Assembly: GCA_964016885.1 (NCBI GenBank)
Contig: OZ024746.1
Coordinates: forward strand, 7,936,001-8,000,000
From: Eledone cirrhosa
Lineage: Eukaryota
Reading direction: 5' to 3'
DNA length: 64,000 bases
The first letter of the stretch is position 1, and the number at the start of each line of letters is the position of its first letter. A program made the translations under genes and the position numbers. The notes under the pieces are model-generated. The model ran no database searches. It was not told the origin of the DNA and saw nothing but the letters and a program-made list of their open reading frames with translations. Shown piece after piece: positions 1-59,593 of the stretch.

Positions 1-125
1 GTCGAAATGGCTTGAGCTCAGCCGTCGGGGTCTTACTTGTTCCTATTACCCACTCTACTACCCTAAGTATTGAGTACTTTGGTGCATTATGGTCCACCTG
101 GTTCCTTACCACATTTCCTTCGTTA
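1..125 (+). mobile_element. Short repeat family 'PLE-end A' (putative Penelope-like terminus carrying the 3' half of a hammerhead)
   Basis: Near-identical to 52617-52741 and to the reverse complement of 13643-13790. Begins GTC-GAAA-TGGC-loop-GCCG-TC-GGGG and is followed by a TA microsatellite. Confidence 0.6.
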
Positions 126-148
126 TATGTATGTGTGTATATATATTT

Positions 149-458
149 TAAAAAAAGGAAAAGAATGACTTCACTTGTAGTTCTAGACAATTTGATTTAA
201 TTTTATATTATTATGATTTTACAATTTTGTTTTGAAGATCTAGTAAGTTCTTTGTTTACTTCGGTGCGGAGATTTTTAAAGATTCCTGGTTAACTTGTGA
301 GAGTTCTCCAGGAAAGTTAACCAAGAATCTTTAAAAATCTCCCCACTAAAGTTAACAAAGAACTTACTCGATCTACAAAACCAAATTGTAAAATCATATT
401 ATAAAATTAAATCAAATTGTCTAGAACTACAAAGGAAGTAATTCTTTTCCTTTTTTTA
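149..458. repeat. Long imperfect inverted repeat (fold-back), arms about 145 bp
   Basis: aaaaaaggaaaagaatgacttcacttgtagttctagacaatttg...ggttaactt is mirrored by aagttaacc...caaattgtctagaactacaaaggaagtaattcttttccttttttt. Confidence 0.9.
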
Positions 459-684
459 GATATACCTAACTGTACCAAGGATTTCACACATTTTCCAATA
501 TATATCAGTGTGCAGGAAAGGTAGCAATTCCATCCTATGCCCCAAATGCAAAGCTATGGGTACATAAAATATGTAGTGGGATCACAGGCAGACTATCACA
601 AAACATAGGTTTTATATGAAGCCGATATTTGGTTATTGTCATATAAATTATAATAATTTTCAGATTTATCATGAGAACTTAGAA

Positions 685-54032: not shown

Positions 54033-54087
54033 CATATGTCATCATCATTCATTTAACATCTGCTTAAATGAATGATGATGACATATG
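54033..54087. repeat. Perfect hairpin, 24-bp arms, 7-nt loop
   Basis: catatgtcatcatcattcatttaa catctgc ttaaatgaatgatgatgacatatg. Confidence 0.95.
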
Positions 54088-57000
54088 CATTGCGTGTGTA
54101 CACACACACACACACACATAAAGTACATCATTTACTGCAATATATCCTATCTATGTTACAGAAAACAGTATTTAACACACACATATATATAACATATATA
54201 TATTAAAAAATACCCAATAAGTTTTTTTTTAAAAAGCCAGCCCAATGCAGTAGAAAACATGAAGGACAAATGCTGGTAAGTATAACAAAGTAATGTTTTA
54301 CCCAGTATATTATGGCATATTTCAGGGTTATTACCCTTTTATTTTTTTTAGATACGGGGCTGAAACAGTCTTAGATAAAACAGGAGCGATTTGACTTTTC
54401 TTCTGGAGAAAAAAACTTATCAGTCGTTTACTACACATCTCACAATGCTTCACATTAACTACACTATTCTCTCTCATATATATATATCAGGGGTCCCAAT
54501 TCTTTATAATACATATATATTCACATACATCTGGAGCATAATATATATATAGTTCATGATAAAAAGAGTGGTACAATTGCAAATCAACAACTGGGATACA
54601 TATATTAAAATAAATATAGGGATAGACAGGTTTTCTTGGGCAAAAATTTGGCAGGGAGTCACTTTGCTTCATACAGTACATTCCAAATGTATATACCTAT
54701 ATTTTTATTTACATATTGTATTGAGCATTCTCTTTTCAGTAACATAGGAAGGAAACATCAATCCATTTATGGTCTCTAAATTTCTGATGGAGTTGTATGG
54801 GCATTGCCATGTCTTGTGCATTTTAACTTGATGGAGCCCAGCAAGAGAGAGAGAGGAAGAATGAACCCAAGTATTGGACTGGTATTTTATCAACCATGAA
54901 AGGATGTAAGGCAAATTTAACCTCAGCAGTATTTGAACTCAGAGAAAAGATGGCTGGAATGAATCCCATGAAGCATTCTATCTGACATTCTAACAACTTT
55001 GCTAATTCAAAGTTTATAAGGAAGATATGTTAAACTAAATGAAGATATACTTTGTTAGAAATTTACTCATTTGTATAATTCCCATCTAGATATGAATTTA
55101 TTACTGAGCCCTTTTCTGTATGCTGAAATTTATATGAAGAAATGAAATGTTTTTAGCAACTTCCCATGTCTCATGATACAAATATTACATTAACAGATTT
55201 TCTGTATCAAATGATTTTCACAGTCTCCCTTCACCACATAACAAAAAGGCAGCTAAGAGCAATTTTTATAAATGGACAGCTTTCCCATGTTGTAAATGTT
55301 TTCCAATCACAACATGGCATTTTCTGAACAAAAGTCAATGTATTTATATGCTAAATTTAGCTAATTATTTATGATTGGGATGAAGTAGGATGATCCAGGA
55401 CCAAGTAAGGGATAAATTAAATTCATGTTTAATTTAATGTGTCTCCACCATGAGTGTTGTCTAATGGCTGAAAGCAGCAAAAGAATTTGTCTTTGTCACT
55501 GATTTGTCATTGTATCATTCTTTACATAACCAGTATGTGTGCGTGTGAATGCAGCTAAATAACAAAATGATTTATTAGGAAGACAATGCTCTTTCTTAGA
55601 CTGATACTTCAAATTCAGAGTCCCAAAAGTCCCCTAGGTATATGACTGTCAAATATCATGCATGTTTATTAAATATATTTTTAAATACCTAGGTGAGTTT
55701 TCAGGACATCCTGTATATCCCTAAACCATCCAATGCAGTAAGTTATAAGTTATATCCTAAATGACACACTATTTCATAAACTGAGTGAAGAATTTAAAAG
55801 AAATCCACCCAAAGAAACATCATTACGACCATCCCCTATCATGCATAGTTGACTGTGTATATTGGATCATGGGAAGAGTAAGGCTAACATTAATACAAGA
55901 GAGAGTGTATAAAGAAGACTGAGATCTATCTTTGCTTTGGTTGTCCCAAGCATCAATTAAGATATTTAAACATTTGTCATATGTTGCATCCACATTACAC
56001 ACACACAAATTTATATATATATATATAATATATATATATATTGAGTTAAGAACCCAGAGTAGTCTCTTACAATTAAATAGCTCTAAGAAAAAAGCTTTTC
56101 CGAGTCGTACAATATAATTGTTTATTCAATTATACATATATATACATATTATATATATATATATATAATGTATGTATGTATGTTCTGAAGAATGACAGCA
56201 GAGTAAGATGTGATTTTTTTAGGCTGATGGTATAAAGTTACATAACTACCATTCATTAGTCTGCAAATCAATAACTTTTGCTCTCTGAAACAATTGTAAA
56301 ACAATTGCCTCACTTTGCTTTTTTTTTTTCTTTCATTGTTTAATACTATATATATATATATCCATGCATATATATATATATATGTGTATATATAGATATA
56401 ATTATGTTAACATATTTATTTCTCTTTAAATTCTCAGTGAATTTATCAAGTATAAAAATTATAGAAACTAGTTTGAGAATGCTCTTTAGAATTAAACTTT
56501 ACTTTATGTTTCAATGTAAAAGGAAAACTAATGGAAAAAAAAAAACTAACAAGGATAAAAATATTGTTTTTCAGACAACTACCCAATTCTTTGAAACCTT
56601 TTTACAAATAAATCACAGATTTATGATAACTACAAGAACTATACAATCTTACAAATGTCTACAACATGTTTTGTGTCTGTGTTTAAAAAGAACAGAGCAA
56701 AATCTGACTTTATGAGGAGTAAAATGCAACAAAATTCAAAACAAAACTCTTAGACATTTCTTTAAAGCATTCATGTTGTAATAAAACTAAAATATAAACT
56801 GAAAAAAAAAAAGAAAAAAAAAATTTCATGCAACACAAAAGAGATTTAGCTTTAAAAATATTTTTCTGAAATTTTGTATTTATTTTTCATATACAGTATT
56901 TTATTTCTCAATTCATTATTTTGATTTGTGGTGAAAATCGAAAGCCATATAACGGCTATTCAACATATAAGATATATAAATATACTCTTGACTTGTGAGT

Positions 57001-59593
57001 CAAACATAAAATACTAATCAATCACAAACATACACACATATACACCATACAGTTCCTAAAGTAAATAGCTATAACCTTATCTCATTGTTAGATATAAACA
57101 AGAATCCTTAGTGACAAATGCTAAGAGGTAGAGAAGTTATTATTTGAAGGAATTAACTTAGAATTTGTTTCCAACAAGTTAGACTCTGACCTGAGTAACT
57201 AAGTGACACATAACTATATACAATAGACTAACTTCAAATTGCTTTACTATCTAATGACTGCAGCTTAATATATACAAAGAGGAAAATATTGAGACAAAAA
57301 ATCTGAAAAAAATTTTCAGTAAAACTACTAAAATCAACACAAGCAGGATTTGTGTTAGTCAATTGACTTTCATCAAATCGGACCGAGGAAACAATGTCTT
57401 TCCAATTGCTAATACTATCTATTGGTCGCAACTCCAGGCAGAAGGAGCAACGTGAAATAAAGTGTCTTGCTCAAGGATATAACGCATCGCCCGGTCCATG
57501 AATCAAATTCACAACTTCACGATTGTGAATTCAATTCTCTAACCACTCGGTCGCGTGCCTTCACTCACACACACATATATATATATATATATATATATAT
57601 ATATATATATATATATATATCAATTTACTGACCTAACTTCAAATTTACTGACTAAGCACCAAAACTGTAAGTTTGTTTCTAAATTTCTTTACTAAGTTTT
57701 AAGTGGCATTATTCTTGTTTTCTTATATAGTTGTAATTATGTCACTAAGTCATTTCTATTTCTCACACACCCACACATAAAACACAGTTGTAATAAAATA
57801 AAGACTAAAACTAAAATAGAGATATTTTACTTTTTCTGAAAAACCTTCATAAGAAAGACAAGATCGTATTCTAACCATAAATATTTCGTTTTATTTCGTT
57901 TTAATGACCTTCTGGATAGTTTGAGTCTCAATTCTATTTGCCTAAAAATTCCAAAATAAACTTTCTTATAAAACCGTTTTGGAGGAGACAATCTTTAAAT
58001 ATTAGCTTAAAGGAAACATTTGACAAGCAAAACACTATAACTCTTAACAAACAAAGGTCTAATGAAAGTAAATATCACAACATCTAAGAAGTGCTTCATT
58101 CACTATCTGATATAATCAATATTGTCAGTTGTGACTGAACAGTTCAAATCTGTATATTATATACACTCGTTTATGTTGTACCTCAAGATGGTGGTTTGGT
58201 TTAAGTTTTGGGCTAAATGAATAAAAAAGAAGAGGTATAAAACAAATAAAAAGGAAATAAAGACAAAATACAAGTATTCTGAATATTTAGGTCTGACCTG
58301 TTCTTCTAGATACTTTACTGCAACCACAAGGACAACAATACATTCATTATCAACTGATATAGTTGACCACTACATAAACGTATTCATACAAACATACACA
58401 CATACATAGGATTTCATTAACCAGTAATGTACTGGGTAATTGCTGGCCTTGTGCCAAAAGTAGAAACAATTATTACTGATATGTATGTGTGTGTATATAT
58501 ATATATAAAAATAACTTCTACTGGACTAGAACTGTAGAAGTCATTTCTATATAAAATAAAGATACATATACTCTCACAACATATTGAGTACTTTTTTAAT
58601 TGCAGTCTTTTTGAGAATCTACTTTTAATTATATATATATGTATATATATACACATAAATATACTGTATATACTCAAATATAAGCCGATCTGAATATATG
58701 CAATCTTCAACACTGTTTCACAGATCTGTAAGTTGATGGCTTCCAATGATTTATTTAGTAACAATTCCTAAACCTTCAAAAAATACAAAATATGAATTAG
58801 AGGACAGATCCCTAAATGATATTCTGGTTATTGTTTGTTTTAGCCCCTAAGACAACTTACTTAATAAACTTATGATGAAAGGCATTCTAACCATGACCAT
58901 CCTGCCTTATATTCAGATGGTGTGTCTAGCACTAGAAATACTTCTTTGTAATATGAGAGATATTCTATATTAGGCATGGGCAGCCTTTTTTGAGCAGTGG
59001 GTCACATAGGATGTGGCTCATCATATGTCAGACCACACTACTAAAACATTCAAAGCAATTTTGAAATTAGGCATGTGCCATTCAGAAAGCCAAACAAGCC
59101 ATAGTTTTCCCATGACTGTTCTATGTGATTTGTGAGATATTTGGTTGCTATTTTGAGGATGTCAAGCAACCACAAAGAGCTATCATTGTTAGCCCATTAA
59201 CTAAATTATTTTAGTTTTATGTAGTTAAACTTACTATAACCATAACTGACCCAGACTAAACAGTACATCAGCAATATTTAAGTAAAATGTCCCAAACACA
59301 CTAAAAGTATAAAAACACTATGTTCTTCGAAAATATAACCTGTATTTCTATATAACTAATTATATAGAAATAATTAATATAGTTGAAAGGAAAGTAATAC
59401 TGAAAACTTTTTAACTAAATCTTTGGATTATCATAAGTTATATTTCCTACACAACTAAAGTATCGTTTGCATGACAGACCTTGTTAGGAGGATAGAAAGA
59501 AGGAAAATGGAAGGATTGAAAGATTATAAGAGTTATTTCTGATCCCATAATTAAAAAACAAAATAGTTAAGAAAATTTTTTAATTTTTCTTAA

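Follow-up and report, generated by a model that had tools for sequence, protein, structure and literature searches.

Short hammerhead-bearing inserts in TA arrays of the Eledone cirrhosa genome and their relation to Penelope-like elements

We analyzed a 64,000-nt stretch of the 3.0-Gb genome of the animal Eledone cirrhosa (contig OZ024746.1, positions 7,936,001 to 8,000,000; hereafter the window), in which short islands with hammerhead ribozyme motifs lie between arrays of TA-type microsatellite. An earlier reading made from the sequence alone had taken these islands for termini of diverse TA-targeting Penelope-like elements (PLEs) or for non-autonomous, retrozyme-like elements. With the TA-type arrays masked, all islands that it had named were recovered at the given positions, all flanked by TA-type arrays. 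For the most part the islands are short inserts of several PLE families, three of which we traced to the Hydra clade, together with one retrozyme-like repeat.

The group that we call family A has three members and a diverged sister in the window. Positions 1–123 (plus strand) hold a long arm, i.e., +16 to +138 counted from an inferred RNA start, which consists of the 3′ half of a hammerhead and an 80-nt tail; this insert is two-armed and starts about 80 nt left of the window. At 13643–13835 (minus strand), a short arm ending at +58 stands head-to-head with a tailed arm ending at +138, and TA arrays flank the insert left and right. The third member, at 52617–52740 (plus strand) within a multi-kb TA/TACA field, is a lone tailed arm (+15 to +138). 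In the sister at 33343–33471 (minus strand), a short arm starting from the homologous border is joined to an inverted piece of tail.

Six further families are represented by one island each. Family B is present as an internal fragment at 9614–9993 (plus strand) with a decayed type I hammerhead at about 9782–9905 that has a long branched stem II, and family C as the short-end pseudo-long terminal repeat (pLTR) of a second Hydra PLE at 33129–33257 (plus strand), with a minimal hammerhead at about 33166–33210. The family D island, a Hydra-type PLE 3′ end at 21494–21700 (minus strand), contains a canonical hammerhead in decayed form, with changes at G8 and position 15.2, and is joined to an inverted piece of its own 104-nt tail. 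Family E, at 13154–13375 (minus strand), shows a sharp 5′ border and combines a tailed arm, which has the hammerhead 3′ half only, with a partial inverted arm. An old head-to-head pair of family F lies at 23870–24159, with hammerhead cores at 23955 (minus strand) and 24056 (plus strand) in arms that are 77% alike, and a folded-back family H fragment with stem III and the cut-site region at 58507–58629 (minus strand). The fold-backs noted earlier were real in families A, E, F and H. At least six islands had been called sequence-unrelated, and between the seven groups found here there was indeed no cross-similarity except for one weak match of A with H at E < 0.01. No PLE open reading frame (ORF) is present in the window (local tblastn, nothing at E ≤ 1), as had been stated.

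As a background we used an 800-kb sample, evenly spaced across the genome, which contains 686 TA-type arrays. These arrays make up 54.5 kb of the 800-kb sample and 15.7 kb of the 64-kb window. The window includes two multi-kb TA/TACA fields, one at 46082–53926, which we regard as target context only, and one with an assembly gap at 40402–43778 that has no hammerhead island inside. Genome-wide, a first look gave 2115 DNA candidates for family A, 2109 for B, 676 for C, 3766 for D, 2148 for E and 77 for F; family H had four relatives among the fetched loci. A single family A word matched the genome exactly 18,472 times (control, 0).

We ran a strict descriptor of the type I hammerhead on the 800-kb sample, on its reversed sequence, on five shuffles and on the window. 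The sample gave 12 strict matches (8 canonical, 4 of the U3-A8 variant) versus none in the reversed sequence and 0–1 per shuffle. Ten of the 12 were located at most 200 nt upstream of a TA array, a position with a background of 12.8%. Both the enrichment of hammerheads and their association with TA arrays, which the sequence-only reading had offered as checks, were therefore confirmed. It had also listed full, minimal and half motifs: half or decayed motifs are present, and no copy in the window is an intact hammerhead (0 strict matches). The window copies of B, D and F are decayed versions of complete family motifs, whereas those of A, E and H are hammerhead 3′ halves only. The AATAAA said to follow several motifs occurs as a poly(A) hexamer after the predicted cut site in B, D and E only, and no insert ends in poly(A). 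At the gathering threshold, Rfam reported no hammerhead in the window and nine related loci; with an E-value threshold it was unusable, as microsatellite matches to miRNA models dominated.

Families A and B pass the strict type I descriptor in random samples. Canonical cores with long stem II insertions were found in B and D (in D by eye and from core counts), and the stem II insertions of A, B and D measure 50–97 nt. The core of the family A parent is of the U3-A8 type; six of its positions are fixed in 21 of 21 copies, and position 7 is free to vary. Natural hammerheads of the U3-A8 variant are known (PMC3088659) and have already been seen in PLEs of Schistosoma (PMC4209133). In family C, the otherwise invariant U at core position 4 is replaced by A in 29 of 29 copies. 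This Hydra PLE family has hundreds of copies with A4 throughout, i.e., either the variant is tolerated or a dead ribozyme is compatible with amplification. No 5′ core box of family E was seen by eye upstream in three extended copies, and the relatives of family H have a complete minimal core (by eye). We dropped the core count for family F, as its 564 matches were at noise level. Fifteen matches that placed a canonical core directly at the border of family A were rejected as junction coincidences, because the true family A core is U3-A8 and starts 45 nt upstream; these loci were excluded from the junction-base counts given below. Six loci (L247, L252, L264, L290, L291 and L304) point to at least four more hammerhead families near TA arrays, one of which is another U3-A8 family whose stem II is long.

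Parent elements were found by extending the copies. At one family A locus the island is joined to the start of an ORF. Among 20 fetched copies of this ORF start, family A sequence lies directly upstream in 15 and again 2.4–3.5 kb downstream in 13. [quoted passage not shown] It has 701 homologues at E ≤ 1e-20, those among the matches listed being mostly 690–740 amino acids long. Such motifs define the Hydra clade of PLEs, whose members insert into (TA)n (PMC8557442). Moreover, family A has the features of a pLTR, namely a hammerhead, an inverted 5′-truncated copy and a one-sided tail. The 171-nt tail of family C leads into a related ORF start in locus L123, and 4 of 25 loci have a nuclease end upstream of it; for family D, such an end precedes the copy at no more than 1 of 25 loci. 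Both C and D have two fixed ends. Judged by ORF layout and motif signature, families A, C and D are pLTRs of Hydra-clade PLEs, and for these three the term TA-targeting PLE termini was right. Families E, F and H are likely to be such termini as well. PLE-ORF matches lay near family E in 2 of 30 loci, where linkage is not established, and near F in 0 of 20 (Hydra-type queries, 1.5-kb flanks). A second long ORF-bearing element adjoins near-full family A copies at similar spacing in loci L089, L092, L097 and L103.

Family B differs from these. Its unit of about 763 nt is non-coding, the longest frame having 55 codons, and in 8 of 30 loci its end is repeated 741–764 nt upstream, i.e., these are more-than-unit copies. 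With its end repeated in this way and no longer frame, family B fits a retrozyme. The label retrozyme-like hence applies to family B and to no other family.

We then examined where family A copies begin and end. Their 3′ ends fall on two fixed points, +58 and +138, which are 80 nt apart and each coincide with a TA dinucleotide in the element; the intervening tail is where the element body begins. The 5′ starts cluster at or just inside a border (about −7 to +16) in 35 of 42 arms from the 800-kb sample, and seven arms extend further (by eye). Tail-anchored 5′ starts gave a similar distribution, with 15 of 23 between −7 and +17, four extending and four shorter. The border is situated inside hammerhead stem II, and the 5′ core box starts 45 nt upstream of it, which accounts for the half motifs of family A copies. 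The ribozyme cut site at +42 accounts for 1 of 67 tail-anchored 5′ ends, without any pile-up. Given this number and the missing 5′ core box, we rejected the short family A copies as a non-LTR retrozyme (LTR, long terminal repeat). Rather than forming an RNA family of their own that is made by a ribozyme, the family A half motifs result from a cut within stem II of the parent's complete hammerhead. By eye, a TATA-like box precedes the family A border by 31 nt and, in three extended copies, the sharp family E border by 30–32 nt. PLE start sites have been located in the pLTR (PMC2377424).

Tailed family A ends abutted a TA array in 19 of 21 cases in the random sample, compared with 6 of 132 ends of four anchors from short and long interspersed elements (SINEs and LINEs). 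A short-end anchor was array-adjacent in 7 of 14 cases, because it also matches inside long arms. TA targeting by family A thus holds. Ends of families C, D and E had one match each in the random sample, of which 0, 1 and 0 were array-adjacent. The family A element has no TA tail of its own at the junction with its body.

At 464 family A loci, both arms are complete to the border and are separated by one central base. Among the first 50 of these loci listed, the central base pair is G:C in 46 and A:T in 4, where the parent has T. Regions were fetched for 40 of the 46 G:C cases and contained 41 junctions. In 21 of these the G stands before the tailed arm and in 18 before the other arm; two junctions are without any tail, and none has two tails. 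Judged by eye, G-centred junctions span about ten subfamilies, and of 36 arm pairs that could be compared, 32 have both arms from one subfamily. An extra G at the 5′ junctions of full-length L1 has been attributed to the mRNA cap (PMC11702581). From these junctions, the extra G likely marks the capped start of the family A RNA. In locus L329, many private changes are common to both arms, suggesting one divergent template or conversion between the arms.

We propose that the two cut ends of a TA array probably prime on one and the same capped sense RNA, and that the products are joined at the RNA start. The GIY-YIG domain would cut both strands of the (TA)n array, and each cut end would prime internally on this RNA, one at +58 and one at +138. 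Both complementary DNAs (cDNAs) would run off the capped 5′ end, with the cap copied as one extra base; after trimming, the two cDNA ends would be joined head-to-head, leaving a palindrome that is tailed on one side. The family A copies with half a ribozyme would hence be cDNAs that ran off the capped RNA and cover its first 58 and 138 bases. Longer copies would stem from priming at the 3′ repeat or, more speculatively, from a jump to it. Since the 5′ core box would lie upstream of the RNA start, no activity would be expected of the 5′ ribozyme copy, and the 3′ copy alone would be complete. In vitro, cutting and extension of both strands have been shown for a PLE protein, which starts from two internal RNA sites delimiting the tail and uses uncut RNA (PMC11167929).

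Several observations weigh against this reading. The 50 listed junctions are selected perfect and complete ones, all from one contig, and a terminal-transferase activity could in principle also add G or C at junctions. A scripted count of untemplated bases in unselected loci yielded four clear cases only (1 G, 2 T, 1 A). Four of the 36 arm pairs differ at a subfamily-diagnostic site, a discordance not expected from one RNA alone. The extra G was seen in family A only: the centres in family E were 98 C, 2 G and no A or T among 100 rows listed, a C that is templated so that microhomology swamps the test, and the four two-armed loci of family D had templated centres with an extra G in none. The TATA offsets were read by eye and may be due to chance. 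Pfam gave no hits above cut-off on three ORF fragments and a weak GIY-YIG match in one of four homologues. Finally, parents of E, F and H were not found with Hydra-type queries in 1.5-kb flanks, the genome-wide search having covered E and F.

As an alternative, the PLE 3′ ends could have been stopped by a stall of the RT at a small stem II hairpin, where addition of a non-templated base and self-priming would then have made the second arm. In the predicted fold, the border does coincide with the 3′ side of an internal stem II hairpin, and palindromes at inverted PLE junctions have been read as self-priming on an antisense template (PMC3846280). However, the enzyme would by then already have passed stems I and III and the longer outer part of stem II, and a base added without template would have to be G:C in nearly all of the junctions listed. 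The base moreover stands on the untailed arm in 18 of the 41 junctions. In these the tail is on the arm opposite the short cDNA, and fold-back of the short cDNA, which has no template for the tail, therefore cannot supply it. We consider a stall unlikely.

Still less probable is an amplification of the short palindromes as non-autonomous units in the manner of retrozymes or miniature inverted-repeat transposable elements (MITEs), with a central G inherited once. It would account for the very high copy number and the fixed outer ends, and family B does act as a non-coding unit. In family A, however, the junction varies between copies, the insert as a whole is not bounded by terminal inverted repeats, and the parent body begins with the tail. 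Furthermore, the same G-centred form, its G on one arm or the other, recurs across some ten subfamilies, and a single inherited palindrome is therefore ruled out. TA-inserting MITEs of the Tc1/mariner type have terminal inverted repeats and an invariant interior; we rejected a MITE identity for family A, as its ends are asymmetric and its centre is variable.

That ribozyme self-cleavage and RNA circles define the inserts, and that the multi-kb TA fields are built as these insert and are tailed again and again, is very improbable: circles have been proposed for PLEs (PMC4209133), family B does have its more-than-unit copies, the window is richer in arrays than the sample and 4 of its 9 fields above 400 bp touch an island, but family A ends do not pile up at the cut site, 5 of the 9 large fields touch no island, and the arrays next to family A inserts do not exceed the average in length (median 34 bp and maximum 302 bp in 55 flanks of 29 loci, versus a median of 46.5 bp for all 686 arrays). 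Since the flanking arrays are not long, the majority of large fields are without an island, and target duplication was not seen (shared words, direct 3 of 36 versus inverted 1 of 36), the earlier suggestion of array building by these inserts is unsupported.

The Hydra clade includes a member from Octopus, Hydra-1_Obim, with 2507 bp and a (TA)n target (Craig et al. 2021, PMC8557442), and Penelope-like families have been reported for O. vulgaris (PMC13282606). Our elements resemble the clade in their single ORF of about 700 amino acids with RW, DKT, CxCX5C, CxxC and CxH, in their length of about 3 kb, in the (TA)n target and in a pLTR with hammerhead, inverted 5′-truncated copy and one-sided tail. 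They differ from it in tails of 80–171 nt instead of 30–40 nt, in the U3-A8 core and long branched stem II of family A and in the A4 of family C; the accessible part of the clade account contains no description of a sharp 5′ border or an extra G as in family A (PMC8557442).

With Poseidon PAc from Anolis carolinensis (Frangieh et al. 2024, PMC11167929), family A shares the AT-rich target, the use of both strands, two internal start sites that bound the tail and the lack of ends at the ribozyme cut site. In contrast, Poseidon PAc belongs to another clade, and priming was shown there in vitro, in the accessible part of that work without a mapped run-off at a capped end or head-to-head joining. 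Both start sites of family A lie on a TA dinucleotide and could pair with the target. As in the minimal hammerheads of metazoan PLEs (Cervera and de la Pena 2014, PMC4209133), there are widespread single motifs and opposite-strand motif pairs from truncated PLEs, the U3-A8 variant and a palindromic stem III; unlike in these, families A, B and D have stem II insertions, and the inferred RNA start of A falls within stem II. Family B is like the animal non-LTR retrozymes (bioRxiv 10.64898/2026.07.22.740005) in being non-coding, with a type I hammerhead and more-than-unit copies. It is unlike them in consisting mostly of dispersed partial copies in TA arrays, with a full two-motif dimer at most once (locus L067).

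Apart from the hammerhead islands, the window contains long RT-like frames, which we take to be pieces of RTE-type LINEs. One LINE frame of 907 amino acids lies at 36834–39557 (minus strand); about 14 kb from it, at 21847–22926 (plus strand), its family is represented by a 3′ fragment in inverted orientation, and a different RTE-like frame lies at 16763–18274. A degenerate stretch at 24889–25600 appears mariner transposase-like by eye. Tandem units of about 39 nt at 5823–6720 have grown from the 3′ end of a SINE copy, and a weak tRNA-like match at 2464–2518 is probably a SINE head; the SINEs of the window presumably resemble octopus repeats. Two pieces of another abundant TA-associated repeat lie at 13541–13614 and 15023–15118, matching 23 and 17 loci in the 800-kb sample, respectively, and were found joined in locus L145. 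An island without a ribozyme at 50139–50400, within the large TA field, is a repeat with nine loci in the 800-kb sample.

In LTR retroelements, minus-strand strong-stop DNA is primed near the RNA 5′ end and runs off at the cap, and the terminal redundancy permits a jump. The head-to-head joining of two run-off cDNAs that we propose for family A would be similar in all three respects, and would differ in being target- rather than tRNA-primed, in yielding two cDNAs and in employing a GIY-YIG nuclease. It is conceivable, and we suggest this tentatively, that a PLE pLTR may work like U3-R-U5, with two starts near the capped 5′ end of one sense RNA. Most events would then give head-to-head strong-stop copies, of the order of 10^5 arms in the genome, and full-length copies or new pLTRs would arise via a jump to the 3′ repeat. 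In this Hydra family, the promoter would be built into the ribozyme, with the TATA-like box on one strand of stem II and the start inside, so that the 5′ ribozyme would be disarmed and only the 3′ copy could cut.

The elements belong to a known kind, their anatomy has been published, and the basic pattern is known as well. New here are the G on either arm of two-armed inserts and the apparent start site inside a U3-A8 ribozyme. A literature search, in which few subscription papers were reachable, found no publication on cap footprints or strong-stop products in PLEs. How inverted, one-side-tailed PLE insertions form has been named as an open question (PMC8557442), and whether the template is sense or antisense was left open (PMC3846280). 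That a cap-like base occurs at hundreds of junctions, on one arm or the other, speaks for two cDNAs copied from a capped sense RNA. The junction G may thereby link an in vitro result (PMC11167929) to genomic products. If pLTRs do work like U3-R-U5, antisense self-priming would be replaced as the explanation of PLE palindromes. Family A would also provide a natural U3-A8 ribozyme with a long stem II that is overlapped by a likely promoter. For genome annotation, the very abundant short palindromes in TA arrays would belong under PLE debris and not under MITEs or retrozymes.

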